DNA of 63,237 bases, filler included, from Stramenopiles sp. TOSAG23-6 (Eukaryota), in NCBI GenBank assembly GCA_900128565.1. It is 34 parts of 34 records of this genome, joined end to end, with 100 filler letters (N's around TTAATTAATTAA, not from the genome) between each part and the next. Parts side by side here need not be neighbours in the genome. Positions count along the whole stretch, not along the records: positions 1,878 to 3,652 come from LT638608.1; 33 more parts are not named here. One strand, given 5' to 3'. A program made the position numbers and the translations under genes. Within the stretch, counting starts at the first letter, position 1, and every line of letters begins with the position of its first letter. Positions 1,878-61,172 of this stretch are shown here, one piece after another. The notes beneath the pieces are model-generated. The model had not been told where the DNA came from. It was given only the letters and a program-made list of their open reading frames with translations, and did not search any database.

Positions 1878-2133
1878 TCATGAATTTCATTTTTTTTTTT
1901 TTTTTTTTTTTTTTGGAAAAAATTTTTTAAAAAAAAAAATTTTTTTTTTTTTTTTTTTTTTTTTGGTACGAAATTTTGTAACAAAAAAGATTTTTTTTTT
2001 TTAAATTTCTATAGATGTGTACATTTTCATCATGAATTTCAAATGTATTTTTAATTCCAGTGCTGTGAACTATGAAAATGTTGTACCTAACAAAACAATT
2101 TAAAAAAAATGAAAACGAAAAAATACAAAACAG

Positions 2134-3535
2134 GGAAGTCGCAAGAAAACAAGTTGATGATGAACGTTTTATTTTTTTTCAATTTCGAATTTATTTTTCA
2201 TAGTAAATTTTGTACCTAACAAATTTAAGTCTTTTTTTTTTGAAATATTTTTCCAAAATACATGGTGCACAAATTATTGATATCAATGTTGATGATGGTT
2301 TGATCGATGGGAAAAAAGCGATGAGTAAGTTTTTAAGACTAGCAATGACTGAACCCGATATATGTCGGGTTCCAATGATGATTGATTCCTCAAAATTTGA
2401 AATTATTGAAGAAGGACTAAAATGGGTTCAAGGAAAATGTTCGTTTTTAAAATTGAATGTACAATTTATATTTTTTTCATACGAAATTTTGTAACTAACG
2501 ATTTTTTTTTACCGGAAAAAAAAAATTCACAATATATCGATTGTGAATTCAATTTCTTTAAAAGTAGGATTAACAGAGTTCAAACGACAAGCTAAAATTG
2601 TAAAACGGCATGGTGCCGCTGTTATTGTGATGGCATTTGATGAAGATGGTCAAGCAGCTACGTATGCTGATAAAGTACGAATATGTAAACGATCGTATGA
2701 CATGTATGTTTTATTTTATTTTTTTTTNCNGNAAAAAAAAAANTCGAATATTTTTTTCATAGTAAATTTTGTACCTAACAAATTTTTTTAGAAAATTTTT
2801 GAAATATTTTTCCAAAATACATTCTTGTTGATCCTTTACAAGTGGGAATGGCACCAGAGGATATAATTTTCGATCCAAACATTTTAACGATTGCTACTGG
2901 ACTTCCTGAACATAATGGATATGTTTTATTTTTTTTTAATTTCGAATTTTTTTTTTCGTACGAAATTTCGTACCTAAACAAAAACGATTTTTTTTTAAAT
3001 ATTTTTTCACAATATAGGTATGCTGTTGACTTTATTCATGCGTGTAGAGAAATTAAACGAATATGTCCATTTTGTAAAATCAGTGGCGGAGTCTCAAATT
3101 TATCATTTGGATTTCGTGGAGTGAATGTTATTCGAGAAGCAATGCATTCAGTATTTTTATATCATGCCATTCAAGCTGGTATGGATATGGGTATGTACGT
3201 TTTCAATTTCGAATTTCAAATGTTTTTTTCATACGAAATTTTGTACCTAACAATTTTTTTTTGATTTTTTTTTTTTTCACAATACATTGTAAATGCTGGA
3301 ATGTTGGAAGTATATGAAGATATTGAACCGGAGCTGAGGTCTTTGGTTGAAAATGTCATCTTAAATCGTAACCAAGGCAATGACTTGACGAATGGTGGTG
3401 CTGCCACTGAAGCTTTACTTGCAAGAGCTGAGAAAGAACGCTTAATCGCCAATTCTTTGAAGAGTGGTAGTAGTGTACAGGTAGAAGTCGCGGCGTGGCG
3501 TTCGAAAACTATTGAGGAAAGATTGACACATTCAT
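2134..3535 (+). CDS. metH: Cobalamin-dependent methionine synthase, pterin-binding domain (partial, multi-exon)
   Basis: Spliced product [21 protein letters not shown]...[31 protein letters not shown]...[33 protein letters not shown]...[14 protein letters not shown]...AGMDMG/IVNAG. These are MetH motifs. Exons 2134-2161, 2264-2438, 2538-2703, 2823-2918, 3018-3194, 3288-3535. Confidence 0.95.
2162..2263 (+). other. Non-canonical intron (GA...AT variant) in metH
   Basis: GAT|gaacgtttt...tgtacctaac...ccaaaatacat|GGT restores [12 protein letters not shown]. Confidence 0.85.
2439..2537 (+). other. Non-canonical GT-AT intron in metH
   Basis: AAA T|gttcgtttt...cacaatatat|CG ATT GTG restores [12 protein letters not shown]. 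Confidence 0.85.
2704..2822 (+). other. Non-canonical GT-AT intron in metH
   Basis: GAC AT|gtatgtttt...ccaaaatacat|T CTT restores RSYD-I-LVD. Confidence 0.9.
2919..3017 (+). other. Family intron, probable AT...AG variant, 99 nt with no in-frame stop
   Basis: AAT GG|atatgtttt...cacaatatag|G TAT GCT restores EHN-G-YAVDF. The exact register is ambiguous. Confidence 0.7.
3195..3287 (+). other. Non-canonical GT-AT intron in metH
   Basis: GGT AT|gtacgtttt...cacaatacat|T GTA AAT restores the conserved GMDMG-I-VNAG. There is no AG dinucleotide in the insert. Confidence 0.92.
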
Positions 3536-3629
3536 GTATATTTTATTTTTTTTTCAAATTCGTTTTTTTTTCGTACGAAATTTTGTACCTAACGATTTTT
3601 TTTTTTTGAAATATTTTTCCAAAACACAT
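3536..3629 (+). other. GT-AT family intron
   Basis: CAT|gtatatttt...cgtacgaaattttgtacctaac...aaaacacat. The 23 nt downstream do not look like MetH (possible chimera). Confidence 0.7.
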
Positions 3630-3841
3630 GGATTGGGATGAAGACGGTCGAANNNNNNNNNNNNNNNNNNNNNNNNNNNNNNNNNNNNNNNNNNNNTTAA
3701 TTAATTAANNNNNNNNNNNNNNNNNNNNNNNNNNNNNNNNNNNNNNNNNNNNTNTGTNAAAAAAAAATAAATTCGAAATTTGTTAGGTACAAAATTTCGT
3801 ACGAAAAATAAATAAATTTGAAATTCATAATGAAAACGTTC

Positions 3842-5431
3842 TATCCTGTGCAGATGTAGGACCACGATACCAATTTAATGAGGTTATTGATCTTCTTAAT
3901 GTTGTACCATTGTATGAAGGTGGTGATGATTCAGTGTGATTCTCCAGTGTTTTTGGCTTTCTATTTTTATCTATTTTGGACGACAAAAATTCAAAAGCTA
4001 AATTTTTGACTAATGTTTCGAGTGTAGCACTTGATACTACTTTCCCTCTTGAGCCGAGTAGATGAAAAATATCTAATTCAAGTTTTTCCGTAGCCGACTT
4101 GATATTGTCTTCATTCTTTTCACCTGGCTTCATTATATTGATATTTGACTCAGTCTCTGGCCTTGGTATACTGTTGCATTGCAGAGAATTATTTACAGAA
4201 GACTGTACCTGTTGTGTTGAAAAAATATTTCAAAACACAAAAAAAATTGTTAGGACNAAANTTCGTACGNAAAAAAAAAATAAATTCGATTTTTTTGTTA
4301 AAAAAAAAAATAAAACATACCTGTAGACTTGGAAAACTGACCATATTCGGATTACAAACCATCTCAATATCTCCATCATCCGTCTTTGGTGCATGAAATG
4401 AAAAATTTAATGACACATCTTTAGAAAATTCAGAATGATTCTTCGATAAATTATTATTACTAGTATCTTTACCCTCTTTTTTTGAAATTGTCATTCTCTC
4501 ACACTGGAGGTCAACTAATGTATTTTGGAAAAATATTTCAAAAAAAATCTTAAAAGATTGTTAGGTACAAAATTTCGTATGAAAAAAATATATTTCAAAA
4601 AAAATCTTAAAAGATTGTTAGGTACAAAATTTTTATAAAAAAATAAATTAGAATTTGAAAAAAAATAAAACATACATGAACGCAACTCTTCAATAGGACT
4701 CTCGTGGCTCTGTTTGAAAGATGAATTGATTTCAGAGACTCTTTTATCTTCAATGTCTTTCAATATTTGTTTTGTGAGAACAATACCAATGGATTATGAA
4801 AAAATATTTCAAACATTAAAATCGTTAGGTACGAAATTTCGTATGAAAAAAAAAACTTAAATTAGAAATTCATATGAAACGTACATTCGTCTAACACTTT
4901 CTTCTATTTCAGTGCACCATTCAAGTACATCATTTCGCTGTCTTACATTTTGCGCTAGTATAAATATACGATCACCAACACCAAATACAAGACTGCGACC
5001 AGGGTTAATAAATTGTGAAAAATATTGTTTTTTTTTGTGGATAAAAAAAATCGTTAGGTACGACATTTTCATACAAAAAAAATAAATAAATTTGAAATTC
5101 ATGATGAAAACGTACATTAACATACTGCGGTAACGTGGACCTGTACCAAGATGATGAACATTCTGCCTTGTCAATCTCTGCCGTATTCTCATCGACCCAG
5201 ATGTTTTGTTTGATCTTTTAGTTTTAATCTCATGTCCCCTAATTTCGTGAAGTGATGTATTCTTCATATTTCGACGAATGCGAGGTGGAGAACCAGCAGC
5301 ACTACGAGAAAAACTTGGATTTATGTTCTTTGCATTTAAAAAACCAGTTGAACCAGCAGCACTACGAGAAAAACTAGTGATTGTGTTCTTCCTTTCTTTA
5401 AGAGGAATTCTTTCAGCAGAATCATGGGAAG
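3842..5431 (-). CDS. Unknown low-complexity protein, multi-exon fragment
   Basis: Minus-strand exons separated by family introns at 4209-4320 (GT-AG), 4518-4675, 4789-4884 and 5008-5115 (GT-AT), with partial copies at both contig ends. Confidence 0.6.
4209..4320 (-). other. Family intron with canonical GT-AG ends
   Basis: On the minus strand: CAG|gtatgtttt...cgtacgaa...cctaac...caacag|GT. Same body as the GT-AT copies, with AG at both boundaries. Confidence 0.75.
4518..4675 (-). other. GT-AT family intron with a tandemly duplicated core
   Basis: Two copies of aaattttgtacctaacaatcttttaagattttttttgaaatat about 57 nt apart. Confidence 0.8.
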
Positions 5432-5682: not shown

Positions 5683-7307
5683 GGCATCGATGGAAAATGG
5701 AACAATTGTTCAATTTTTGTCTCTCAAAAAAAAATGCAGTGGGTAACCAAGCTCGACATTGTTTATCACTAGTTCATTGGTTACATTGTACTGCTGATAA
5801 CGTTCGCAGTTATTGCCCTGAGGAATTACCCGAACTTGCCGAAGACTGCTGTGAACAAGCAGGAGTTTGGCTCCAACGCATTAGTGATACAATCGTTGCT
5901 GCTGCGGGATTTCTCACTCAAAAGGTTGCAAATATTGATTCCACTGGCTCTGCTTTATCATATGTTTTGGATAGAATGAATGATAAAGCACGCCCACCAC
6001 CAGGTACGGAAAGTCTTCCATGCAATCGCAAAGTTGTATTAGGAATGACAATGGCAGGACAGCATCTTTGTCAATTATGTTGGACTTTATCTTCCTCTGA
6101 AGCTGTTGTTGTATTTAATCAATTATTTTGTCCAAAATCGTTTTTGCATGCATCACTAAAAAAAGCTTTGCTTGAAGAGGTACGAGCTGCTGCACTAAAC
6201 AAACGAGATGAACCTCATCCATTATCACTTAGTGAAGATCTTCATCATTTTCTCATTGTTTTACAGGCATTTACGCATTATACTAGAATACCAGTGGGTA
6301 ATTTAATTAGGGAAGTCATGATGGAAGAAATGGATACCAGAAGCATATCTCATGTTGGAAATATTGGTCAACCTATTGTCCTTCCACAAGTTTCTAGTCC
6401 TACTTGTGTACGTTTGCAATTTCAAAGTTTTAATTTGTTTTTCGTACGAAATTTTGTACCTAATGATTTTTTTTTCGAAATATTTTTTCACAATACGTGG
6501 ACTTGCACCCACATCTTATATTGGATCTCTATGCTTATTTTTCCAGGCTACTGTGAATGAGCGATTACCCATGCGTGCGGATGCCGTAACTCAGCGAAAT
6601 GGAATTGTGCATTCTCCTTTTGCTGGTGGATATGTTCGATGGCAAAAACCAGATTGGAGACAACATTCTGTACACACATTTCCATTTTTGTGTCAACAAC
6701 AGTTTGAACCCATGTTGCGATTAATGGGACCTTTGGGGAAACGAACAGTTGATGTATGTTTTATTTTTTTTTTTTCAAATTCCAATTTTTTTTCGTACGA
6801 AATTTTGTACCTAACAAATTCTAGTTTTTTTTTTTGAAATATTTTTCCAAAATACATGCACTTCTCCTGAGTATTGCTGTGACTGGAGTTCAAAAATTAT
6901 GTCATGTTGTTATGCAAAATAGAGTTGTTTTACAGGCTTTACGAAAATCAGATGAAGATGGCACTGAACTTCTTTCATCGCTTCAAGGTGGGCGCCTCAT
7001 TGGTTTGAATGAATTTTCTCAAGTCGCAGTAAAAATAGGTCATGTAGGTTTTCATCTTTCATTTAATTTTTTTTTTTGGAAAAGTATGATATCTCACAAG
7101 TTTTATTTAAAAAAAAAAAAAAAAAAAAAAACATATATTTTTTCACAATACATTGTCTAACGATAAGAGAAATGTTGAGAAAAGCACAAGCTTCGATTGC
7201 TCATGAAGTGATGCCAGACATCCAACAATGGTCAGAAAATATGATTGGTCAAGCAAATGAGCCTCTAATGGGATTTGATCCTGCTTCATATTTAGTCGAA
7301 GAATTAT
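5683..7307 (+). CDS. NCKAP1: Nck-associated protein 1 / Hem / NAP1 (WAVE complex subunit), partial
   Basis: PGTESLPCNRKV..LCQLCWTL....VVVFNQLFCPKSFLHASL matches the Nckap1-family PGxES...F.P.EYL segment. Four family introns. Confidence 0.75.
6408..6498 (+). other. Family intron ending in GT (GT at both boundaries)
   Basis: ACT TGT|gtacgtttg...cacaatacgt|GGA CTT joins ORF 5697 to ORF 6352 in frame. Confidence 0.75.
6754..6857 (+). other. Near-consensus GT-AT intron
   Basis: GAT|gtatgttttattt...ttcgtacgaaattttgtacctaac...gaaatatttttccaaaatacat|GCA. Confidence 0.88.
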
Positions 7308-7595: not shown

Positions 7596-9216
7596 GTATG
7601 CAAAAAAGGAGGCGGTCATGGAGGAACTTAATCAGGACAATCGTAAAGAAAAATGTGCTACATCATTTTATCGTCACAAAGTATTGACCAAATCTTTTGT
7701 ACGTTTATTTACAGCGACAAACATTCGCAATTCCATTGCTTTTCAGTTTCGCTTTTCGAAAGAATGTCATCGTGTGATTCAAGCTTGGAGAATTGAAACG
7801 AAGAAAATCGTACAGAGAAAGAAAGAGAGGAAAGTTGCAGATGTATACTTAAATAATACAAAATCATTATCTAGACCTCAACAACATCTTAAAAGGAACT
7901 CATACACTGCAGAATTTAAGAAACGTAAAAAAGACAAAATACGACAAAATATTGCAGAAGGACACGAAAAACGACGTCGTTTAATGGCTGAAACAGAAGT
8001 TAACTGGCGAAATCAAAATATACATGTAGAGAATAGAAATCAAAATATAGCTGTAGAGAATAGACGTGGATTGGCACTCCGAAGAAAAATGGTCAAATCT
8101 ATACGAAATGGAGAAACAAAAAAAGAAAAAAAACAGGTTGGAAATTCCTCACAGGCTTATGGAGAAACAAAAAATGAAAAAAAACAGGTTGGAAATCCCT
8201 CACAGGCTCATGTCGCAAATACTTTTAATGATGACCCCGAGCCCAGAAAAATTACACCACAGCCATATTCTACAAATAGTATAGAGAATATAGTATCTTC
8301 AAATCACAAGAATAATTCTACAAATAGTATAGAGAATATAGTATCTTCAAATCACAAGAATACTGATTTTGAAATTGAAAAGCTTGAAAAGAAAGTTTTG
8401 AATTTGGTTATGAAGCAATATAGCATTTCAAAGGATCAAGATGGTACAAATCAAGTATCAATATGTATGTTTTAATTTTTTTCAAATTTGTTTTTTTTTC
8501 GTACGCAATTTTGTACCTAACGATTTTTTTTTTGAAATATTTTTCTAAAATACATGTCGACGAGGGTTTTATTTATTATTACGAGATTGTGGTTTGTTAT
8601 GTGGTAATGAGGATAGAGCAAAACGACGAGGTGTTCGTTTTCATCATGAATTTCGATTTTTTTTTTCATAGAAATTTTTGTACCTAACAAAAAAATCAAA
8701 ATTTTCAAATATGTTTTCACAATACATGGTTTTGGTTTAAATTTATTAGACCTTTGTAGAATTTGGGAAGTATCATTTAGCCATGTAGATGAACCAGAAA
8801 CTCAAAAGCTTCGAAGGGCGCTTGCTGCGGTATGTAAAAATTTGAGCAGTAATAATCCTCAAAAATGTTTATCTCGAATGATAGTTGATTCGATTTTACC
8901 TGTTGTGTTTCATTCAAATGTATGTTTTATTTTTTTTCAAATTCGATTTTTTTTCATACGAAATTTCGTACCTAACGATTTTTTTTTGAAATATTTTTTC
9001 AAAATACATGATATTAATATCAATGAAACATACAAATCTATAACCGAATATAATGTGGACAGATTTATTCCAATCGGAAGTCTTAGTAGAAAAGTTACAC
9101 AACTTTTTTATGATTACCGTAAAATTATTCAAGATGCATTCAAACATTTGACAAATTCGGTAGTTCCACAAACTTCAAAAGTAAGAGACATTCGAAAAAT
9201 TATTCAAGTCGGTGAT
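7596..9216 (+). CDS. Unknown protein, multi-exon fragment
   Basis: Frame stays open after removing GT-AT introns 8465-8555, 8633-8727 and 8920-9009. Short internal tandem duplications. Confidence 0.65.
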
Positions 9217-35531: not shown

Positions 35532-37291
35532 TTTTTTTTAAATTTTTTTTTAAATTTTTTTGAAATTTTTTTTGAAATTTTTTTTTTATAAAAAATTTTT
35601 TTCCTAAAAAAAATTTTTTTTTTTTTTTTTTTTTTTTAGTAGAAAAAATGATACAAAACTTTCATAATCTAACAAAAAAATTTAAAAATTTTGTAATATT
35701 TTCATACAATATATATAGACAGTTACAATATTCAGGAATACTTGAGTTAGTTCACATAAAATGTAACGGTTTTTCATTTCGTCAAACGTTTAAAAATTTT
35801 TGGTATAAAAAATGTGTACCTAAAGATTTTCATACTTTTTTACATCTTGAAAAAAATCCAAAAGATGGCGATTTTAAGAGATTATGTGCCATTGTTGGTA
35901 ATACAATTTTCCCTTCCAATTCAAAAAATTTTACAACACGAAACTCTACACAAAAAATAGACAATTCTACTGAAACACGAAAAAATGAAAAAAAAATGGA
36001 AAAAAATTCTGAAAAATATTTTTGGTGTGTAGGAAAATCTCTTTTTTTTGCAAAAAATGATATTGATTTTCGTTTATTTCGTTGGCATCAAGATCGAATA
36101 AGTACAATACTTTGTAGTTATTTTCGATATTTATTTTGGGAAGTAAAGTTCAAACATTTTTTAACTGCACAAACCTGTCTACAACAAAAATGGAAGATTA
36201 AAATGTTTATACAAAAAAACAAATATTTACATTCTGATGTTGAAACAACACAATCAATGATATATAGTATGTACGTTTTCAAAATTTTTAAAATGTTCNA
36301 AAAAAATTTTCAAAATTTTTTAAAATTTTCAAAAAAACATTTCATACGAAATTTTGTACCTAACAATTTTTTTTTTCCGTAAAAAAAAAAAAAAAAAAAA
36401 AAATTTTTTTTAAAAAAAATTTTTTTTTTTTTTTTTTTTTTTACGGAAAAAAAAAATTGTTAGGTACAAAATTTCGTATGAAATGTTTTTTTGAAAATTT
36501 TAAAAAATTTTGAAAATTTTTTTNGAACATTTTAAAAATTTTGAAAACGTACATACTATATATCATTGATTGTGTTGTTTCAACATCAGAATGTAAATAT
36601 TTGTTTTTTTGTATAAACATTTTAATCTTCCATTTTTGTTGTAGACAGGTTTGTGCAGTTAAAAAATGTTTGAACTTTACTTCCCAAAATAAATATCGAA
36701 AATAACTACAAAGTATTGTACTTATTCGATCTTGATGCCAACGAAATAAACGAAAATCAATATCATTTTTTGCAAAAAAAAGAGATTTTCCTACACACCA
36801 AAAATATTTTTCAGAATTTTTTTCCATTTTTTTTTCATTTTTTCGTGTTTCAGTAGAATTGTCTATTTTTTGTGTAGAGTTTCGTGTTGTAAAATTTTTT
36901 GAATTGGAAGGGAAAATTGTATTACCAACAATGGCACATAATCTCTTAAAATCGCCATCTTTTGGATTTTTTTCAAGATGTAAAAAAGTATGAAAATCTT
37001 TAGGTACACATTTTTTATACCAAAAATTTTTAAACGTTTGACGAAATGAAAAACCGTTACATTTTATGTGAACTAACTCAAGTATTCCTGAATATTGTAA
37101 CTGTCTATATATATTGTATGAAAATATTACAAAATTTTTAAATTTTTTTGTTAGATTATGAAAGTTTTGTATCATTTTTTCTACTAAAAAAAAAAAAAAA
37201 AAAAAAAAATTTTTTTTAGGAAAAAAATTTTTTATAAAAAAAAAATTTCAAAAAAAATTTCAAAAAAATTTAAAAAAAAATTTAAAAAAAA
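35532..37291. repeat. Whole-contig perfect inverted duplication (assembly/MDA artefact)
   Basis: Identical 244-aa ORFs on both strands, including the same N base. Axis at ~36411 inside an intron homopolymer. Confidence 0.92.
35715..36270 (+). CDS. Myosin exon (end of motor domain, converter, IQ-like)
   Basis: RQLQYSGILELVHIKCNGFSFRQTFKNF and VGKSLFFAK. Flanked by family intron ends (...caatatat| and AT|gtacgtttt). Confidence 0.75.
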
Positions 37292-41109: not shown

Positions 41110-42047
41110 CATTTGGTAACATGTGCCGTGGTGGACGCATGTTCGCTCCAACCAAGGTCTGGCGCAAATGGCACAAAAAGGTCAACAAGAACCAGCGTCG
41201 CTACGCCGTCGCTTCCGCTCTTGCTGCATCTGCTGTTCCAGCACTTGTTATGGCACGTGGACACAAAGTCGATGCTGTAGCTGAACTTCCACTTGTTGTT
41301 GATAACACTGACAGCATCGCTAAGACTTCTGCTGCATATAAAATGCTCGCTGCTCTCGGTGCTGGTGCAGATGTCGACAAGTGTAAAGCTTCCAAGAAGG
41401 TTCGCCGTGGTAAGGGTAAGATGCGTAATCGCCGTTACGAAATGCGTCGTGGTCCTCTTGTAATCTATGACACTGAAACCTCTCTTGTACGTGCTGTCCG
41501 CAATCTTCCAGGTGTTGACACTTGCCAAGTTGACCGCATGAACCTCCTTCAGCTCGCTCCTGGTGGCCACATGGGACGTTTCATTGTCTGGACTAAGTCT
41601 GCTTTCGCAAAACTTGACACTGTCTTCTCTGATGCATCAAAGAAAGGTTACCATCTTCCACACCACATGATGGTTAATGGTGACATTGGTCGCATTATTA
41701 ATTCTGATGCTGTTCAGTCTGTTGTCCGTCCTGCTATTAAACAGCACAAGATGCACTCCCGCAAGAAGAACCCTCTCAAGAACCTTGGTGCTATGGTCAA
41801 ACTTAACCCATATGCTCTCACCATGCGTCGCACAGAACTTGCTGCTCAGAAAAGACGCGCTGCTAAGAAGGCAGAGGCTCTCGAAAAACGCCGTAAAGGG
41901 GTTAAGGGCACAAAGAACTCCAAAGCACGCTCCGCTGCTTCCAAGGCTTTCATCGCTGCAATGCTCGAAGATGAGTTTTCATCCTCTGAAGAAGAATATT
42001 CTTCTTCTGAAGAAGAAGATGAAGAAGAAGAAGAAGCTGAAGAGTAA
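41110..42047 (+). CDS. RPL4: 60S ribosomal protein L4 (uL4), 5' truncated, no introns in this fragment
   Basis: [45 protein letters not shown] and KKNPLKN, with strong codon bias. Confidence 0.98.
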
Positions 42048-42968: not shown

Positions 42969-44545
42969 TGACAATTTTCAAAATGTTGACAATTTTCAAA
43001 ATGTTGACAATTTTCAAAATGTTCAACATGTAAAAAGAAAGAGAGATGTACCATCTGTGTTGGGATATGATAATATCACTCTTGCTGCTTTATTTAATGC
43101 TCCTCCATTTGATCAGGATTTACCTTGGAAGATGGAAATTGAATTTATGAAAAAAAATATTCAAGGTCCAACAAAAAACAGTTCTGTTCCAATTTTTCCA
43201 TGTCCTAAAAATTGTACAACGTCAACAAAATGTACAAAAATTGTTGATTTACGAAATAATTTTATATTTAAAAAAATATTTCAACTTTTTAATACTTATG
43301 TTGTTGGCCAAGATGAGAATGGTGAACAAAAAATTAAAACTTTAATTCGAAATGCATTAAAAAACAAAACTGTTCAGCCTAACCCTAACCCTAACCCTAA
43401 CCCTAACCCTAGTGGAGATCAAAAAACATTGGACAACATCAAAGATACACGAAATTTGTTAGGTACGAAACTTCCTATGAAAAATGTTGATACTATTTTT
43501 GAAAATTTGTTAGGTACGAAATTTCCTATGAAAAATGTTGAAAATATCTTTACATCACAATTTTCAGTAAATACTGATTTTGTTGTATTTAATGGAAATC
43601 ATCCATTTTCACCAAATACATTTTTACGTGTTACAATTTCCAAAATTGTTTGTTTTCATCATTGCATTTTATTTTTTATTTTCTATATTTTTTTATTTTT
43701 ATTTTTTACACGAAAAAATACAAAAAAATACAAAAAAATCCAATTTTTTTTTTTTTTTTTTTTTTTTCAAAAAACTAAATATTTTTTGTTTTTTAAATAT
43801 TTTTTTACAAAACATGAATTCAACGGACTTGACCAATTTACTCAATTTAATCCACTTCATGTGTTACAGTCCAAATCACCAAGTGAGTTTTATTATAGTA
43901 CAGGAGCAAGTTATACTCTGCAAAGTGAATTTGCTATGGATTATATGTACGTTTTATTTTTTTTCAATTTTTTTTTTTGGTTTCATACGAAATTTTGTAC
44001 CTAACAATTTTTTTTCAATTTTAATTTTTGTGAAATATTTTTTCAATTTTAATTTTTTTTTTTTTTTTTTTTTATAGTAAATTTTGTACCTAACAATTTT
44101 AAAATTTTTTTTTTTGAAATATTTTTCCAAAATACATTGGTGTACGTCTTACCCTCTCCATTGATTCCAATGATGATATACATAACCAAAATAACCCAAA
44201 AACACGAATTATTCGATTAAGTACAAAAGTACGAAATTTAAGTACAAAATTATCGATGCTTCTTGCACTTAATCAAGATAAAATTTTAAATTCACAAATT
44301 GGAGCATTTGTACAACATCCTGTTGCTTGTGGTGGCCATATTTTATCAGCATTTGAAATATCTGAATTTATTGTGAATACAACTTCAATTGATAAATTCG
44401 AAATTGAACACGAAAAAGGTGATTTTATTGGAGATGGTTTGCATACACTATTATCTATCGTTCAGCTTGTTTCAGACAGTTTTGTACAATCCAATTTGTC
44501 TGTGTTATCAAATTTTTATGTTGCTCCTTTACTTACGGAGTATAT
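42969..44545 (+). CDS. Unknown protein, multi-exon fragment
   Basis: Frame is continuous over GT-AT introns 43648-43815 and 43947-44137. Confidence 0.6.
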
Positions 44546-47816: not shown

Positions 47817-48303
47817 CGTACGAAATTCTATACCTAACAATTTTTATCAAAAAAAAACATTTCATACGAAATTCTATACCTAACAATTATTTTTTTTTAC
47901 TATTTCATGTTCTACATGGGGAAAGAAAACGAAAAACAATAAAAATTAGTGGAGCCACTGATAAAAAAATGTTACAAAATATAAAGAAATGGGAAAAAGA
48001 GCATGAAAAACAATTTATGTATTTTTTCATTTTTAAAAATTTAAAAAAAAAAAAAAAAATTTATTTTTAAAATTTTTAAATTTTTTAAAATTTTTTTTTA
48101 AATTTGAATTTTTTCTCAATTAGAGTTAGGATTAACAAAAAATTATGAATTTTTTTAAATATATTTATACAATACAGGAAATGGCAACAAATTGATAACT
48201 CTATAAAAAATCCAAGTCTACAAAATTCGACAATGACAAATCATTCAAATATATCAAATAGAACAGAACAATCACAATTTTATAATAGAAATGAAAGTGA
48301 AAA
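46770..48303 (+). CDS. Low-complexity Asn/Thr/Asp-rich unknown protein, partial
   Basis: Long ORF with AAT/ACT/GAT microsatellites. Family introns at ~47773-47917 and 48019-48177 (GT-AG). Confidence 0.5.
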
Positions 48304-50390: not shown

Positions 50391-51309
50391 ATTAGAAGAA
50401 TCACCAATAATAAGAACAACGAAAAAGAAAATTATTCTATCACCAGTCCACCGTCCTCTCCAAGAAATACGTCAATCGTCGTTTAATTCTTCCGACATGT
50501 CATTTCACGATGATGGTTCTCCATATAAAACACCAGGTATTATCCGTTCTTTACCACCTCGAACCCCTTTGACAAATTATAATAAAACTCCCCGGACGAC
50601 AGCGTCTAAACGAGCAGTAAAGAGTGCAAAAAAAACAAATCGAACTTTCCGCAAGAATCGGTCCAACTTGGTCAAATCTCTTTTGATTGAATACAATGAA
50701 AATGTTTTTGATTTGCAAATTCCTGAGGATTTATCAATTACCTGGAACACGCGTTTATTAACTACAGCAGGGTATACATACAACAAGAAGGAGAGAGCGT
50801 CAGGATTTCGTGTGTCTCGCATAGAATTAGCTGATAAAGTTGTCGATACTGAACAAAAACTGAGGGAAACTTTACTACATGAATTATGTCACGTTGCTGC
50901 TTGGTTAGTTGATAGTTGCAATCGTCAGTGTTGTCCTCCTCATGGTAAACATTTTAAAGATTGGTGTCGCAAGGGTAAAGAGAAATATCCTCATTATGGA
51001 AACTTTGACAAATGTCATAATTATGCTGTTTTTAAAAAATTCAGATATGAGTGTCAAGGTTGTTTTATTACTTTTGGTAGGCATTCAAAAAGTATAAATA
51101 TTGACCAAAAAGTATGTGGTAATTGCAAAGGACCAATAAAATTATTAGGTGCTTTTAATAGAGATGGAACACCGATGAAGTCTAGAACTCCAAATAAGTT
51201 TGCGTTGTTTGTAAAGAGTAATTTTTCTTCGGTAAAGAAAACAAATCCACACCTGAAACATGGTGATATAATGCGTGAATTATCATCTATGTATAAAAAT
51301 GAAAAATAA
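50391..51309 (+). CDS. GCNA/ACRC-like SprT metalloprotease with zinc ribbon and HMG-like tail
   Basis: WNTRLLTTAG, TLLHELCHVAAW, HGKHFKDW, YECQGC...CGNC and NKFALFVKSNF. Confidence 0.9.
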
Positions 51310-51323
51310 ATGCGTAGATTGAC

Positions 51324-51364
<41 letters not shown>

Positions 51365-51387
51365 CAATAATATCAGTTACATTACAT

Positions 51388-52084
51388 TTATTGCAGTGAA
51401 TGATTTGGACATTTCCCAGGGCCAAAATGGTCAATAGGTTTTCGGACTCTCTGACGACAAATAAAACAAAACCCAGTTCGACACTGATGACATCGAATAT
51501 AATTGTTGCCATTCGGACGTTCATTGAAAGCGCCACATGATAAGCATCGCGCCAGATCATATCTTTGTACTCTTTCAACAAATTCTCCTACTTCAACATC
51601 TTCATTTATACCGTCTTGATATTCATTGTCAAAGCCTCTGTTCCATAGATCAATTTCTTCTTGATCAAATAAAACGCAAGTATTTGATTCATCACGAAAA
51701 TGTGCATATCCAATACTTGAAATATCTTCATTACATATGGAGAAAAGAAAAATATTTTACATTTGAAATTCATTAGGGTACGAAACGTTTTGATTTGGTA
51801 TATTAAAAATAAATTCGAGATTCAATTTTGAAAACGTACATGAAACAGAATTTGCATTCACATTGTATACAAGTCATTTTGTTACACCCATGATTTTTTT
51901 CAATGAATATTCTACACCGTGGACAACTTTTAAAATCTGACGATCGTATAGCTTCAAGAGTTTGTATTTCGTGTTTTAAATCATTTTGCATTTTTGACAT
52001 TTTATCACTTATTGTTGAACTTGAGATTCTTTTTTTTAAACCGCTTATTCTAGACTCCATATTCACACAGGGTGTTCCAGGATG
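51388..52084 (-). CDS. RBR E3 ubiquitin ligase (RNF14-like), 3' part
   Basis: CPRCRIFIEKNHGCNKMTCIQCECKFCF/ICNEDISSIGYAHF joined across GT-AT intron 51737-51839, then a second Cys cluster CLSC...CHQC..FCFIC...HFGPGKC. Confidence 0.88.
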
Positions 52085-52242
52085 ATGTATTTTGGAAAAA
52101 TATTTCAAAAAAAAAAACTNAAATTTNTTNGGTACAAANTTTNNNNNNNNNNNNNNNNNNNNNNNNNNNNNNNNNNNNNNNNNNNNTTAATTAATTAANN
52201 NNNNNNNNNNNNNNNNNNNNNNNNNNNNNNNNNNNNNNNNNN

Positions 52243-53175
52243 ATTAGAAGAATCACCAATAATAAGAACAACGAAAAAGAAAATTATTCTATCACCAGTC
52301 CACCGTCCTCTCCAAGAAATACGTCAATCGTCGTTTAATTCTTCCGACATGTCATTTCACGATGATGGTTCTCCATATAAAACACCAGGTATTATCCGTT
52401 CTTTACCACCTCGAACCCCTTTGACAAATTATAATAAAACTCCCCGGACGACAGCGTCTAAACGAGCAGTAAAGAGTGCAAAAAAAACAAATCGAACTTT
52501 CCGCAAGAATCGGTCCAACTTGGTCAAATCTCTTTTGATTGAATACAATGAAAATGTTTTTGATTTGCAAATTCCTGAGGATTTATCAATTACCTGGAAC
52601 ACGCGTTTATTAACTACAGCAGGGTATACATACAACAAGAAGGAGAGAGCGTCAGGATTTCGTGTGTCTCGCATAGAATTAGCTGATAAAGTTGTCGATA
52701 CTGAACAAAAACTGAGGGAAACTTTACTACATGAATTATGTCACGTTGCTGCTTGGTTAGTTGATAGTTGCAATCGTCAGTGTTGTCCTCCTCATGGTAA
52801 ACATTTTAAAGATTGGTGTCGCAAGGGTAAAGAGAAATATCCTCATTATGGAAACTTTGACAAATGTCATAATTATGCTGTTTTTAAAAAATTCAGATAT
52901 GAGTGTCAAGGTTGTTTTATTACTTTTGGTAGGCATTCAAAAAGTATAAATATTGACCAAAAAGTATGTGGTAATTGCAAAGGACCAATAAAATTATTAG
53001 GTGCTTTTAATAGAGATGGAACACCGATGAAGTCTAGAACTCCAAATAAGTTTGCGTTGTTTGTAAAGAGTAATTTTTCTTCGGTAAAGAAAACAAATCC
53101 ACACCTGAAACATGGTGATATAATGCGTGAATTATCATCTATGTATAAAAATGAAAAATAAATGCGTAGATTGAC

Positions 53176-53216
<41 letters not shown>

Positions 53217-53994
53217 CAATAATATCAGTTACATTACATTTATTGCAGTGAATGATTTGGACATTTCCCAGGGCCAAAATGGTCAATAGGTTTTCGGACT
53301 CTCTGACGACAAATAAAACAAAACCCAGTTCGACACTGATGACATCGAATATAATTGTTGCCATTCGGACGTTCATTGAAAGCGCCACATGATAAGCATC
53401 GCGCCAGATCATATCTTTGTACTCTTTCAACAAATTCTCCTACTTCAACATCTTCATTTATACCGTCTTGATATTCATTGTCAAAGCCTCTGTTCCATAG
53501 ATCAATTTCTTCTTGATCAAATAAAACGCAAGTATTTGATTCATCACGAAAATGTGCATATCCAATACTTGAAATATCTTCATTACATATGGAGAAAAGA
53601 AAAATATTTTACATTTGAAATTCATTAGGGTACGAAACGTTTTGATTTGGTATATTAAAAATAAATTCGAGATTCAATTTTGAAAACGTACATGAAACAG
53701 AATTTGCATTCACATTGTATACAAGTCATTTTGTTACACCCATGATTTTTTTCAATGAATATTCTACACCGTGGACAACTTTTAAAATCTGACGATCGTA
53801 TAGCTTCAAGAGTTTGTATTTCGTGTTTTAAATCATTTTGCATTTTTGACATTTTATCACTTATTGTTGAACTTGAGATTCTTTTTTTTAAACCGCTTAT
53901 TCTAGACTCCATATTCACACAGGGTGTTCCAGGATGATGTATTTTGGAAAAATATTTCAAAAAAAAAAACTCAAATTTGTTAGGTACAAAATTT
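52243..53994 (+). repeat. Redundant duplicate of contig 50391-52142
   Basis: Same start and same ORFs at offset 1852. Visible differences are only at N positions. Confidence 0.95.
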
Positions 53995-54094: not shown

Positions 54095-55843
54095 AAAGTG
54101 GTAAGAATCATCAGAAAAAGACTACTAGCGTAGAAACCCATGTAGGCTCGAATCGAGAACTGTGTCCTAGGTACGCTGGAGTTGTTTACTCAGAAGAAGA
54201 CAAGATTCTCGATGAGGAAGCAACTAAATCTGAAAAAGAAGAATGGCTTCGAAAACGCCGTGAAAGAATTGACGCAGCTGAAAAGGCCGCATTAAAACTT
54301 GAGGAAGATAGACAACGTCAAGTTGCAAAGGAACTTGCAGAAGTATTGAAAAAAGAAGAAACTAAAAGAAGACTTGCGATTGAAGAAGAAATTCGTAAAC
54401 GAAGTTGTCAACCAGGAGCATATCTCGATCAATTATTTGCATGTCAATCATGTAAAAATGGTACATATTCTTCAAGCGTAAATGCGACAGAGTGCATACC
54501 CTGGAGCAATTGTGTCAATGGTACATATGTAGAGAAAATACCTTCAAACACTACTGATCGTCTATGCAATAACTGTACTAAAGGCAAATTTGTGAATAAA
54601 TCTTTGATAAATGCACAGAAATGTAATGACTGGAAAGCTTGTTCTCCTGGGACTTTTGTTTCCTTCAATGGTACCCATACGACTGATCGAAGCTGTCAAA
54701 ATTGTACTATTGGGCGGTTCAGCAACAAACCGAATCAAGAGGAATGTACTAAATGGCAAATATGTGCTGAAGGTATGATTGAAAAAACCAAACCTACTTT
54801 GTCAGAGGATCGAGTGTGTAAATGGGAAGACTGTGTAGCAGGTAATTACATTCAGAAACATAATATCACATTATCTCAAAATGAAACATCATTAGATGAA
54901 GTAGAGAAAACTAACAGAAAACCGCTGTGCAAGCCGTGTCCACCAAGTACATTTTCAACCCACGCTAATAGTGATGAATGCTATAAATGGAAAGATTGTG
55001 AAATTGGAATGTTTATATCAAGAAATGCAACGAGTGAAAATGACCGTTCGTGTTCAAATTGTCCTCAGGGCTATTTTACAAAACATGAAAATTCCTTCAA
55101 TTGTACTAAATTTACAGACTGTTATCCAGGCACTCATATTCATTCAAGTATCAACGGTACTTCAAGTTCTGACCGCTTGTGTGAAAAGTGTACACTTGGT
55201 AAGTATTCAGATAGAATAAATAGATCATACTGTTTAAATTGGAGTGAATGCTTACCAGGTACCCGACTAACGATTGTTGGTAATGTAACAAGTGATACTG
55301 TATGCGAAGATTGCCCCTTGGGAAGGTTTGCGGAAGTTGCGAACCCGTTAGAGTGTTTTCCTTGGAAAGATTGTCCTATAGGATTCGGATTACTTCAAAA
55401 TGGAACTCGGTCCTCTGATCGATTATGTGTTGAGTGTAATAGCGACTCTTCACCCAACACGTATTCTGACATTAGTGACGGTACACCTTGTAAACCTTGG
55501 AACAAAACATGTGAAGCTGGAAAAGGTTCTCATGGTATTCCAAATGGAAAGAAAAATTATGAATGCATAGATTGTCCTCATGGTACATTTTCTGACTCTG
55601 AACATGAAAAAGGATGCGATTTTTGGAGTAATTGTAAACAAGGTACTGGTCTTATTGTAGAAGGTACTGCAAAAGTAGACAGACAATGTAGTGATTGTGA
55701 TGTTGGAACATACTCTTCAAGTACAGATGGACAATCTTGCTCTGCATGTGAAATAGGCAGATTTTCTGCCGACATCGGTGCTCATGAATGCACTAAATGG
55801 AAGACATGCTCACGAGGACATGGTATGATTGTTCCGGGTTCAG
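54095..55843 (+). CDS. Cys-rich TNFR/ephrin-receptor-like (GCC2/GCC3) repeat surface protein, partial
   Basis: About 11 repeats of CxxCxxGxFS......C..W..C..G.......T...DR.C. Confidence 0.85.
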
Positions 55844-59641: not shown

Positions 59642-61172
59642 AGCAGCAGATGTTGATATTAGTTGGCGCATGGATGCAGAGAAAAGCTTCTCTGACTGGA
59701 CAATTACAATTAAAAGTGAGAATGCAATGACCACGACATTCCACTGTCATAAAAACTTTCTCGCTTGTGGTAAGAGAAAGTGTAAGTATTTTACAGCTTT
59801 ATTGAAAACTAATGAATATACTGAAAGTTCTAAAAGCGAAACAATATTAAATTTACAACAGTCTGCTGCCAATGCTTTTCCACTTTTGCTTGACTTTTTG
59901 TACACCGGCAATTTAAATGCAAAAGCTGAAAATATTGTAGCCTTGTTTTATCTTTCTCAGTATTTGATGTGCCATGCTTTACAGGTAGAAGTAACAAAAC
60001 ACATGAGCGAATGGCTAAATTGTGATACTGCTGCCCTATATTTACTTGAAGGAGAGAAGTATTCTCTTCAAAAGGTAAAAGATGCTGCTGCTCCACTTGT
60101 TGTTGAATTGTTATGTAGGCATATAACTCAAAGTTCAAAACTCTTCGAAGTTTGTAATTCATTTCCATCACATATATTTATGCAAGTTTGGTCATCCGAA
60201 GAAGCAAAAGCATTGGTAAAGCAAAAACGCTTTTCTGAAATTTTAAGCGCTGTAATTGGAAATTATTGTAAAAAAAATATCAAGAAAGATGAAATTGATG
60301 AAACATATTTGATCAATATGACAAACATTGAAATATTACCTCATCTTTCACTTGAAGGTGCATCTGACATATTATATTGTCTACTTTATTTTGAAAAACT
60401 GATAAAAAGATGGCCATTTGTTCTTGCTAGTAAAAATTCTGTTGCTCATGAGCAATCATTAAGGTCTCGGTGCACAAAGAGTATTAGTGAAAAATGGGTA
60501 TCAAACAAGATATACTCCATGTCAGATGATGCAAATGACTCCAGTTCAGATGATGCATATGACTTGAAAGTCAAAGAATTCGTCGATCAATTTTATACTA
60601 CTAAACAAGTAATCATTGATAATAATAAGGATGATAATTCATCGTCTCTAACACCAGTGCAGAAGGAAAGAAGTGTTTCCTCTGGAGATGCTGCTGCTGG
60701 TAGTGAATGTGATACGATCATCAATACAGATAGTCTTTTGTTAGCAGATGTTACTATTGAAATGCTTTCCAAAACGATTTCTAATTTAATAAAAAAGAAT
60801 GACCTATCAACAGCATCGATTAAGAATATGTTTGATCAATTAAAAGAAAAGAATGACCAACTGAACAAATTCAAAGAGCATGCATTGATTCTTGTCCAAG
60901 GGGCAGGTTCAAGTGGAGCCAATGGTGTTTACAAAAGAAATGATCTAGATGATACTAGATTTACTAAGATATCTGACCAAAGATACGTTCTTCGACAAGC
61001 CAAAGCCCAAGATAGATGGTATATCACTGAAAACAATTCTCCGATTTATGTATGTCATAGTAAAAGTAAGGAACCACCAGTAATTGGTTTTCGAGTATCA
61101 GGAGGGAAATCCCCAGCACTTACTATAACTCTAACCAATCTGGAAAATATTTTTTTTCCCTCTAAATCTTAA
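59642..61172 (+). CDS. BTB/POZ domain protein
   Basis: SFSDWTITI...FHCHKNFLACG.RKCKYF...FPLLLDFLYTG. Confidence 0.88.

Follow-up and report, generated by a model that had tools for sequence, protein, structure and literature searches.

The reason for the spliceosome's insistence on AG at the ends of introns is still debated, and the few genomes that break this rule (Fritillaria, Amoebophrya and euglenozoans) are the main natural experiments on it. In the available parts of the reports on Fritillaria (F. borealis and F. pellucida), short repeated introns of transposon origin are described at lineage-specific positions and are mostly non-GT/AG; the U2 spliceosome removes these MITE-derived introns, which most commonly end in AT or AC, and their last three bases are a pyrimidine-A-pyrimidine triplet that frequently stands before the 5′ site too (PMC13326754, PMC11282704). 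The introners of the parasitic dinoflagellate Amoebophrya, as far as the accessible text of the source goes, have direct repeats of 3–5 nt over their boundaries and inverted repeats at their ends, which make the cut ambiguous, and non-GT/AG introns make up over 60% of the total (PMC7789003). Canonical introners (Micromonas, Aureococcus and others) are, in the excerpted review, MITE-like elements that carry one splice site and take the other from the target-site duplication; splicing restores the original message, and near-identical sense copies lie in unrelated genes (PMC11282704). The accessible sections on Physarum describe U12-type introns that tolerate 3′ ends other than AG (GT-AT among them) and propose an origin from a transposon with a 2-bp duplication (bioRxiv 10.1101/2020.10.12.336362). 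For euglenid nonconventional introns, the review excerpts report that the RNA ends pair stably with each other and that a pyrimidine tract is lacking (PMC11282704). Our literature search found no prior description of such introns for stramenopile-labelled or similar protists; supplements may hold intron lists.

The window analyzed here (the whole stretch of DNA, 63,237 nucleotides, from Stramenopiles sp. TOSAG23-6) is a chain of 34 contigs whose lengths fall from 1777 to 1748 bases, with 100-base linkers between them; contigs that adjoin in it are therefore unlinked. The assembly was poor, with 881 isolated N and 1.8-kb contigs, among them one perfect palindrome and two that are near-identical. 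The contig at 1878–3652 encodes a 304-codon piece of cobalamin-dependent methionine synthase (MetH/MTR) with the pterin-binding domain, about 300 of the approximately 1250 residues of the full gene. The homocysteine-binding, B12-cap, B12-binding and activation domains (PF02574, PF02607, PF02310 and PF02965) lie beyond the contig ends. Exons matched solved human and bacterial enzymes in PDB (4ccz_A, 9ssp_A and 3k13_A). The best full-length homologues of exon 6 had all five MetH domains and were 55–63% identical to it, and metagenome contigs related to this exon were relatives of at most 50% identity, at 23 loci. The nearest named uL4 proteins came from protists and plants, indicating that the host is a protist and not an animal. 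The features of the contig, with the inserts read in the GT..AT register, are as follows.

1878..3652, plus strand: contig carrying the whole finding, 1775 bases, with linkers of 44 N + TTAATTAATTAA + 44 N on both sides
1878..2133, plus strand: AT-rich stretch with decayed repeat copies; core-like word at 1965, subfamily 5′ end at 2017, TTGTACCTAAC at 2081
2135..2161, plus strand: exon 1 (EVARKQVDD), from homologue alignment
2162..2263, plus strand: insert 1, GA..AT (or AT..AC at offset -2), phase 0, 102 nt, CTAAC at 2216
2264..2438, plus strand: exon 2 (GAQIIDIN...WVQGK and the first base of a Ser codon), 4ccz_A 396-453, PF00809 34-92
2439..2537, plus strand: insert 2, GT..AT, phase 1, 99 nt, no AG, diverged copy, CTAAC at 2495
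2538..2703, plus strand: exon 3 (IVNSISLK...RSYD), 4ccz_A 455-507, PF00809 96-153
2704..2822, plus strand: insert 3, GT..AT, phase 2, 119 nt, ACAT repeat flanks, four N at 2728-2743, HMM 1-102
2823..2922, plus strand: exon 4, residues 6-33 matching 4ccz_A 513-540, PF00809 159-182
2923..3021, plus strand: insert 4, GT..AT, phase 0, 99 nt, TATG repeat flanks, CTAAA as the branch-like word
3022..3194, plus strand: exon 5 (AVDFIHAC...QAGMDMG and the AT of an Ile codon), 4ccz_A 541-597, PF00809 186-240
3195..3287, plus strand: insert 5, phase 2, 93 nt, no AG, HMM 1-102, registers AT..AC, TG..CA and GT..AT only
3288..3535, plus strand: exon 6, from homologue alignment
3536..3629, plus strand: insert 6, GT..AT, 94 nt, no AG, HMM 1-102 with E 9e-18
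3630..3652, plus strand: contig tail, 23 bases, no frame matching the expected LVKGI

Six AT-rich inserts of 93–119 nt thus cut metH. The initial annotation had proposed six inserts with junctions fixed by conserved residues; all six were confirmed and their coordinates set, and the claim on junctions stood for five of them, whereas the sixth was not fixed. Removal of each insert with one flanking AT gave a translation that aligned with ten MetH homologues without gaps at QVDD|GAQ, QGK-S-IVNS, RSYD|ILVD, EHNGY|AVDF and GMDMG|IVNAG; the exact restoration claimed for the last of these was borne out, and the alignment needed no boundaries that use AG. The ranges of single exons on 4ccz_A, the human methionine synthase, were contiguous across junctions 2 and 4. 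In an exon-by-exon profile search, exons 2–5 matched PF00809 in order; at the cut-off of 25.5 bits, exons 2, 3 and 5 scored above, and exon 4 alone scored 19.2 bits, below it. A 2-residue length difference lay 4–5 residues inside exon 4, away from the junction. At insert 6, the 5′ junction fits homology and the exon stops where homologues continue with LVKGI. Because 3630–3652 reads WIGMKTVE against the LVKGI of the homologues, the sixth junction is not fixed; these bases may belong to a longer intron as its spacer, or come from a diverged exon or from misjoining at a repeat.

The joined reading (2135–3535) had no stop or frameshift, and in the homologue alignment the exons were intact and conserved, the GGVSNLSF block included. 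These features fit a working gene rather than a decayed one, as the initial annotation had supposed. The residue after QGK is Ser in this MetH, Cys in the nearest homologues and Gly in bacteria. A junction giving Cys at this position (TC..CG) breaks the register of the family; T followed by the element's GT yields TGT in every copy, so this junction was dropped. The public CDS model of this metH forces GT-AG, runs into the inserts and omits conserved residues. Since it reads into the inserts, protein sets for this protist and for other uncultured ones like it are probably corrupted wherever the element lies.

Upstream of exon 1, the stretch 1878–2133 terminates in ...AAAACAG at 2133. It is probably one or more further introns ('insert 0') with an AG 3′ end. 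An upstream exon beyond the contig, ending in AT, would then join G2134 to give Met, as before D/E-V/I-ARKQ in homologues. A candidate micro-exon 'AVNYEN' at about 2060–2080 was rejected, being the decayed core of the repeat.

None of the six inserts ended in AG in any allowed register. Inserts 2439–2537, 3195–3287 and 3536–3629 contain no AG at all; for 3195–3287 this had been noticed at the outset, and its absence on checking makes a canonical acceptor inside this insert impossible. The single AG of insert 4 (3016) is out of frame. For all six inserts, no in-frame GY..AG pair sparing the conserved residues was found: in-frame GY..AG alternatives delete at least nine conserved residues, and inserts 1 and 4 have none. 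Three offsets, AT..AC, TG..CA and GT..AT, are common to all six inserts. For 3195–3287, exactly these three yield the same product, in agreement with the registers first proposed for it.

The inserts belong to a repeat family. A 22-base insert core occurred 50 times in the window and never in 100 shuffles, and a chance origin of this core is excluded. An nhmmer model was built from 15 window copies, and with a threshold of E<=1e-3 it gave 66 matches in the window, in 23 of the 34 contigs; in a 24th contig (44826–46582), the repeat match begins one base before the contig's first base. Insert 1 matched model positions 2–102 (E 3e-16), and the match of insert 2 was partial (2469–2508). The repeat is MITE-like, 90–120 nt long, with about 18% G+C and pairwise identities of 0.61–0.91 between copies. 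Its host genes include MetH, Nckap1, photolyase and UCH. The metH copies had a mean identity of 0.73 among themselves and 0.77 to copies in other genes; they are no closer to one another than to others, indicating dispersal and not local duplication. Many contigs begin or finish within a repeat copy; assembly breaks fall at the element. Seawater libraries, of DNA and of RNA alike, contained the element in great abundance, and the core word was not found in viral contigs.

All six metH inserts were bounded by a direct repeat of 2–4 nt, always with AT. Across the family, AT stood before the element at 30 of 42 sites and after it at 25 of 28, a small difference; the more frequent keeping of the downstream AT is what one would expect of a 3′ copy under constraint as intron end and a 5′ copy that belongs to the exon. 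Matched flanks other than AT were TT/TT at 27631–27757 and GT/GT at 6408–6498. Flanks were unequal at 9741–9886 on the minus strand (AG and AT), 24707–24776 (GA and AT), 8633–8727 (GT and AT) and 28465–28573 (TT and AT). A few copies had an AG end: 4214–4320 on the minus strand, 48019–48177 and the stretch that stops at 2133. The terminal inverted repeat GTAT...ATAC is short and measures 6 nt with the AT counted in (ATGTAT...ATACAT).

The orientation of the repeat was compared with that of the host genes. In 20 contigs, all repeat matches pointed one way; after repeat removal, the longest ORF lay on the same strand in 17 of them (binomial approximately 0.0013, by our own arithmetic). The matches in these contigs numbered 46 on the coding strand and 3 on the opposite strand, the coding strand being proxied by ORF length and matches within one gene sharing one call. 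The three discordant matches lay at contig ends beyond the ORF. Pfam-named ORFs agreed on the strand: Nckap1, photolyase, UCH, ankyrin, lectin, WW and PHD-like. Testing the coding strand by flanks of 20 codons did not discriminate (58/58 sense, 51/58 antisense), and ORF length after removal was used in its place. Frame restoration was scored on 18 fully bounded copies, 14 of them testable. Exact removal left a 50-codon open frame across the joint in 13 of the 14, the failing copy being 28279–28391, whereas removal shifted by 1 or 2 nt did so in 3 of 14 each. On the antisense strand, the numbers were 4, 3 and 5 of 14.

The inserts carry splice-like signals: GTAYGT, a branch-like CTAAC, a T-run and a YAT end. 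Five of the six metH inserts begin with GT (GTTCGT, GTATGT, GTTTTA, GTACGT and GTATAT), and insert 1 begins with GAACGT. GTAYGTTTY occurred 42 times in the window, the 5′ consensus of the repeat being GTAYGTTTT; exact motifs were used instead of a loose 5′-end pattern, which gave 205 mostly spurious matches. Among ORF-continuous candidates, 30 of 35 started with GT. In the metH inserts, CTAAC was present in five and CTAAA in one, followed by T-runs, and the branch-like A, a candidate branch site, lay 37–44 nt from the 3′ end. Of 40 candidate 5′ ends, 27 were followed by CTAAC (against a mean of 2.9 and a maximum of 8 in shuffles) and 1 by its reverse complement. GTAYGT falls at exactly +1 to +6 in the GT..AT register only. 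RNA folding of six copies was no better than that of shuffles (z +1.24 to -1.51). Rfam at gathering thresholds detected nothing in the window, which is 63 kb of genome, and no U11, U12, U4atac or U6atac.

Sequencing libraries were compared with the contig. Seven RNA and 12 DNA runs matched 1878–3652, mostly with small shares, and library contigs were compared over 2744–3652 for three RNA runs and one DNA run. RNA-library contigs covered 3303–3500 and 3303–3518, inside exon 6 only, and RNA-run cover of exons 4 and 5 was slight or absent. The expected exon–exon joint was not among the 15 joints listed (there were 250 further ones) for 2744–3652 in RNA and DNA runs; the joints listed were repeat-to-repeat joins of other loci. 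As the RNA contigs stop inside exon 6 and the joints listed come from other loci, these data say nothing for or against splicing, nor on the absence of spliced transcripts that the initial annotation would take as a refutation. An independent seawater DNA contig spanned 3282–3563, that is, exon 6 and both intron edges, with the last 6 bases of insert 5. The inserts are real DNA. A set of 5.8 billion proteins contained no protein of 45–144 residues matching exon 6 at E <= 1e-10, and among proteins of at least 145 residues none near-identical to exon 6 except the mis-modelled CDS; these searches gave no transcript-derived protein across a junction.

The inserts, their family, the need for exact removal, the absence of a usable AG and the strand bias are shown above; we infer that the inserts are quite likely removed in RNA by a spliceosome, of the major type, that accepts a non-AG 3′ end. 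Probably, then, they are spliceosomal introns that derive from a transposon and whose 3′ end is not AG, with GT..AT as the likeliest cut and AT..AC as its main rival. In this mechanism, a short non-autonomous DNA-transposon-like repeat would land on the sense strand of many protist genes and behave as an intron. Each copy supplies a standard-looking 5′ splice site (GTAYGT), a CTAAC word like a branch site and a long T-run. The last two letters of the element's YAT end are the same as the two preceding the element (usually AT), like a 2-bp target-site duplication. A GT...AT cut would take out the element and one copy of the duplication, and would thereby return the pre-insertion messenger, so that the MetH protein would be restored residue for residue. 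Against it, insert 1 starts with GA in the GT..AT register, and the exon downstream of the sixth junction is unmatched. Nor is a uridine as the last intron base known to pair with G+1 in the second step of splicing.

If the inserts are spliced, GT..AT is the favoured register, AT..AC comes second as the less likely one, and other registers take the remainder. A cut two bases to the left would make the same transposon-derived introns U2-type AT-AC introns of the major spliceosome, which on the whole we consider unlikely. This register is allowed for inserts 1, 3, 5 and 6 and keeps insert 1 regular, and among equal placements read aligners would choose AT-AC. A+1 with C-1 is a known alternative pair to G+1 with G-1. 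Marine mirusviruses also have a small AT-AC intron class and, in one of their orders, the branch consensus WCTAAC, according to the available part of a report on them (PMC12768974). However, the AT..AC register turns inserts 2 and 4 into AT..AT and AT..GT and puts the conserved GTAYGT at +3 to +8 rather than +1. Its last two letters, at -4 and -3, vary (AC 19, AT 5, AA 5, CC 3, TA 2 and CG 1 in the 35 ORF-continuous candidates, loose matches included), and the upstream AT was less conserved than the downstream one by the small difference given above (30/42 against 25/28). Introns of the minor spliceosome, a U12-type-like class tolerant of many 3′ dinucleotides, are very unlikely: the 5′ end is GTAYGTTTT and not [AG]TATCCTT, the branch-like A lies 37–44 nt from the 3′ end and not about 10–15, the T-run is long, and Rfam gave none of the four minor-spliceosome RNAs named above, though in 63 kb of genome only. 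The U12 branch consensus is TCCTTAAC, which CCTAAC resembles. The accessible sections on Physarum also describe U12-type introns multiplied by a TA-duplicating transposon (bioRxiv 10.1101/2020.10.12.336362).

Removal from DNA instead of RNA would resemble that of ciliate internal eliminated sequences, with excision between short direct repeats and one copy left behind. The short direct repeats around each insert, of which one copy must stay, the short inverted ends (ATGTAT...ATACAT) and the transposon-like structure of the family would suit such a process, yet DNA excision needs no strand and 46 of 49 matches in single-orientation contigs were sense. The splice-like words were kept (CTAAC in 27/40, its complement in 1/40), the exons had no reassigned stop codons, and the inserts were present in the assembly DNA and in independent seawater DNA. 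Ciliate internal eliminated sequences are TA-bounded, orientation-free and missing from somatic DNA, whereas the inserts are AT-bounded, and we know of nuclear dimorphism from ciliates only. We regard DNA excision as highly improbable. Hardly any more credible is a dead gene or an artefact, that is, a MetH pseudogene full of transposons or repeats inserted during amplification or assembly. The isolated N, short contigs, palindrome contig and near-identical contigs of the assembly would allow it, as would the 23-base tail of the metH contig, which does not fit. Against it, about 300 codons stayed open and conserved across six interruptions, frames were also restored in other genes (13/14), and both edges of exon 6 were confirmed by the independent DNA contig. 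The copies differ by 9–39%, which speaks against a single contaminating sequence as their source.

Spliceosomal introns with a non-AG end would have a wider meaning. We tentatively consider, as possible rather than probable, that this lineage independently evolved genome-wide non-GT/AG splicing, in which 5′ and branch sites are textbook and the major spliceosome can do without AG. The cut would then fall after the transposon-duplicated dinucleotide (mostly AU; also UU, GU and AG), set by distance from the CTAAC and U-tract of one MITE family, the source of most introns. The case would add an unrelated marine protist lineage with one young, recognisable transposon family, normal 5′ and branch signals and a non-AG end, a combination that isolates the 3′ rule. 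If true, it would be the third or fourth independent origin after Fritillaria, Amoebophrya and euglenozoans, and the cleanest; with only the 3′ rule changed, the definition of the 3′ splice site would become directly testable. Its abundance in seawater libraries could also make the element a marker of the lineage.

Comparison with known systems points to a further instance of rule-breaking introns, closest to those of Fritillaria and Amoebophrya. As in Fritillaria, the end is YAY (here CAT/TAT), and TAT or CAT stood before the 5′ site in 21 of 42 cases. Fritillaria introns, in the parts of the reports available, mostly start with AG (AG/AC and AG/AT), whereas these start with GTAYGT, and Fritillaria is an animal, whereas the host here is a protist. 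The solution in Fritillaria is a duplicated or divergent U2AF1/U2AF2. For Amoebophrya, the available text gives no preferred end dinucleotides, missing U1 parts and inverted repeats of 8–20 nt in hairpins; here, in contrast, GT...AT is uniform in one register, the inverted ends span only about 6 nt, and the folds were no better than those of shuffles. With canonical introners, this family shares many similar copies in unrelated genes, the sense bias and a target-site duplication. Those introners, by the excerpts at hand, are GT-AG with duplications of at least 3 nt, whereas this family has duplications of 2 nt (mostly AT) and a non-AG 3′ end. Unlike the U12-type introns of Physarum, the inserts have a non-U12 5′ site and branch distance, and unlike the euglenid type, they carry T-runs and their fold energies do not go beyond those of shuffles.

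Six inserts interrupt metH, and the finding is confined entirely to the contig at 1878–3652. Their coordinates are as follows.

2162–2263, + strand: insert 1, in the preferred GT..AT register
2439–2537, + strand: insert 2, same register, without any AG
2704–2822, + strand: insert 3, same register
2923–3021, + strand: insert 4, same register
3195–3287, + strand: insert 5, same register, without any AG
3536–3629, + strand: insert 6, same register, without any AG

The inserts were 93–119 nt long, with a G+C content of 18% versus 38% for the exons. Joining the exons by coordinates gave 304 codons without a stop. The product was aligned with ten methionine synthases taken from the protein search. 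Except for its last seven or eight residues, the alignment was gapless at junctions 1–5, as an orthologue check of the junctions had called for. The exons were also searched singly, so the result did not depend on manual joining. Single exons matched the solved human structure 4ccz_A at 396–453, 455–507, 513–540, and 541–597, and bacterial 3k13_A at 50–107, 109–161, 167–194, and 195–251. They also matched Pfam PF00809 at increasing profile positions. The single residues absent between exon matches were those whose codons are interrupted by inserts 2 and 3. Inside exon 4 there was a two-residue length difference, located in a loop whose length varies among the homologues themselves. These matches bore out the six inserts described in the initial annotation. 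Its claim that conserved residues fix the junctions held for junctions 1–5 and failed for the sixth, because no frame of the 23 bases downstream of insert 6 yields the conserved LVKGI. The stop-free codons and the five gapless junctions also agreed with its description of an intact, functional-looking gene. An independent seawater DNA contig spanned 3282–3563 with both intron edges, indicating that the inserts are real DNA. Upstream of 2134, decayed copies of the same repeat were found, terminating in AG at 2133.

The absence of AG from 3195–3287, noted initially, was confirmed. All shifts giving an equal product were enumerated. Offsets −2, −1, and 0 (AT..AC-like, TG..CA-like, and GT..AT-like) were common to all six inserts, reproducing the three registers proposed for insert 5. 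The enumeration found no in-frame GY..AG pairs near inserts 1 and 4, and those near the other inserts would remove at least nine conserved residues.

The metH inserts all belong to a single repeat. In the window its 22-base core was counted 50 times, compared with no occurrence in 100 shuffles. Searching with a profile made from 15 clean copies gave 66 matches in the window, and a motif scan added further diverged copies. The consensus reads AT/GTAYGTTTTATTTT..., a core ending in GTACCTAAC, a T-run, and ...CMAAAYAC AT/ (slashes, boundaries). The element ends, GTAT...ATAC, are inverted repeats. Identity between copies was 61–91%, and the six metH copies were no closer to each other than to copies from different genes, indicating spread by transposition rather than local duplication. 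The two letters preceding the element recurred as its final two, and they were AT in all six metH inserts. Across the window, AT preceded GTAYGTTTY in 30 of 42 cases and followed the 3′ motif in 25 of 28. Matched, frame-restoring pairs other than AT were TT/TT at 27631–27757 (+) and GT/GT at 6408–6498 (+), which support a 2-bp target duplication rather than a fixed AT signal. From its sequence, the repeated flank dinucleotide appears to be the signature of such a target-site duplication.

Tandem or nested copies, with scant or no exon between them, were seen at 4518–4675 (−), 1878–2133 (+), 43445–43535 (−), and 29456–29612 (−). Long uninterrupted stretches were found in genes for uL4 and for TNFR-repeat, BTB, and glucosamine-6-phosphate isomerase/6-phosphogluconolactonase family proteins.

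41112–42044, + strand: uninterrupted gene stretch
54097–55842, + strand: uninterrupted gene stretch
59643–61169, + strand: uninterrupted gene stretch
19285–20103, − strand: uninterrupted gene stretch

Ten of the 34 contigs had no profile match wholly inside. Together with the uninterrupted genes, this indicates that insertion density is very uneven among genes.

Several features make it probable that the inserts are removed from RNA as introns. Eighteen copies were bounded, 14 of them with usable flanks, and exact removal restored a 50-codon frame across the joint in 13 of the 14. When removal was shifted by 1 or 2 bases, the frame was kept in 3 of 14 each; on the opposite strand, it was kept in 3 to 5. 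Precise excision is thus required, and is enough, well outside metH too. The sole bounded copy without a continuous frame on exact removal was 28279–28391 (+), where a shift of 2 gave one; this could reflect a misplaced boundary, an indel introduced by sequencing, or another cut position. Copy orientation followed the strand of the longest ORF in 17 of 20 single-orientation contigs (46 copies versus 3), and it agreed in every truly interrupted Pfam-named ORF. The three discordant copies lay at contig ends, past an ORF, one of them on a duplicate contig. This agreement points to a signal read in RNA, as cut-and-paste excision of DNA would be indifferent to strand. Of the signals required by a spliceosome, the copies keep GTAYGT at the start and the T-run. 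CTAAC followed 27 of the 40 candidate starts, whereas shuffles averaged 2.9 and its complement occurred once, and a similar word was retained even in diverged copies otherwise lacking the core. The branch-like A lay 37–44 nt from the insert end. Repeat copies folded as RNA no better than shuffles, making removal guided by RNA structure, as in euglenids or with the hairpins of Amoebophrya, less likely. Spliced RNA was not found: RNA-library contigs on 2744–3652 matched only within exon 6, and the joints among those listed stemmed from other repeat copies. The protein search found no transcript-derived protein bridging a metH junction, and metagenome contigs gave distant relatives only.

GT..AT is the register favoured by sequence, although an intact duplication cannot itself discriminate. 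Major-type introns carry their 5′ hexamer at +1 to +6, and GTAYGT occupies these positions only in this register. With the 5′ cut at GTAYGT, the 3′ cut has to fall after AT to satisfy homology. The downstream AT is also kept more often (25/28) than the upstream one (30/42), favouring GT..AT. Several ORF-continuous copies ended in AT with AG, GA, GT, or TT upstream.

9741–9886, − strand: copy with unequal flanks
24707–24776, + strand: copy with unequal flanks
8633–8727, + strand: copy with unequal flanks
28465–28573, + strand: copy with unequal flanks

Such asymmetry would be expected if constraint acted on the downstream copy as an intron end and the upstream one were ordinary exon. Against GT..AT, insert 1 begins with GA, the gap between 25/28 and 30/42 is numerically small, and a U at the last intron position is not known to be a partner for G+1. 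AT..AC is still a serious rival; in that register inserts 2 and 4 become irregular. Copies ending in AG were found at 4214–4320 (−), which also has AG before the element, at 48019–48177 (+), and in the stretch 2017–2133 (+). AG-flanked, AG-ending copies resemble ordinary GT-AG introns, and 3′ ends of both kinds seem to occur within the family. Since some copies end in AG, the machinery probably accepts both.

The window's 34 contigs, sorted by descending length from 1777 to 1748 bases, form no single chromosome stretch. The linkers (1778–1877, 3653–3752, etc.) each hold the six-frame stop word TTAATTAATTAA between two runs of 44 N; isolated N number 881. As the contigs are unlinked, gene-neighbourhood arguments across linkers are void. 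Profile hits indicated that many contigs begin or finish inside a repeat copy, which explains the shattered assembly. Contig 35532–37291 is a perfect palindrome, matching its reverse complement at all 1760 bases, and looks like an inverted chimera typical of whole-genome amplification. Contigs 50391–52142 and 52243–53994 (1752 bases each) differ at only four positions and are either one locus assembled twice or two alleles. Telomere-like internal repeats, (TTAGGG)2, occurred at 9427, 9697, 10452, 10750, 10924, 16137, 38208, and 57604, with four units at 43383–43406 and CCCTAACCCTA listed among the short ones at about 1477. One lay directly upstream of where the ORF at 308–1375 (−) starts. They could act as promoter or terminator words or be left over from chromosome ends.

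Exon 6 had its best protein match in a 254-residue assembled CDS, eukprot:GSMAST32.ASY1.ANO1.20.1 (P0001). Its alignment with 2264–3535 identified it as a model of the same metH contig with GT-AG forced. It runs into inserts 2, 4, and 6 and omits two conserved blocks, IVNSISLK and IVNAGMLE. Wherever a repeat copy lies, gene sets derived from this assembly are likely to be corrupted. The uL4 gene was 96% identical to a CDS with the same label prefix, its next named relatives being protists and plants; from the label, MAST would denote a marine stramenopile. The sequencing runs containing the metH contig were seawater samples, of which X2 (DNA) and X4, X5, and X7 (RNA) were compared in detail. 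With 2744–3652 as query, repeat words in X2, X4, and X5 had summed depths ranging from tens of thousands to hundreds of thousands, versus less than 50 for exons. The repeat or its relatives are extremely abundant in the sea.

The overall reading of the metH inserts in the initial annotation stands: the finding is real, and their removal in RNA is, judging from sequence, quite likely. The literature searches found no account of such introns in stramenopile-labelled protists; one paper on single-cell genomes of uncultured stramenopiles brings up introns in its main text only where it describes how genes were predicted and reads mapped (PMC5778133). For one order of marine mirusviruses, the branch consensus is described as WCTAAC and some of the introns as AT-AC (PMC12768974); a scan of a viral contig collection did not find the repeat core word. 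In Physarum, U12-type introns have multiplied, some of them GT-AT, perhaps via a TA-duplicating element (bioRxiv 10.1101/2020.10.12.336362), but the 5′ site and branch distance of the metH inserts are unlike those. Amoebophrya is reported to have repeated non-canonical introns with direct repeats at their boundaries, but with hairpins and no preferred ends (PMC7789003). In canonical introners the duplication supplies one splice site, but GT-AG is obeyed (PMC11282704). The nearest parallel is Fritillaria, where MITE-derived introns are described as mostly ending in AT or AC, with a YAY triplet at the end, and as spliced out by a U2-type spliceosome whose U2AF subunits are duplicated; unlike the metH inserts, they begin with AG, and they come from an animal (PMC13326754; PMC11282704). 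By their sequence, the metH inserts would be introner-like elements whose 3′ end is not AG, a kind not previously described in this lineage.
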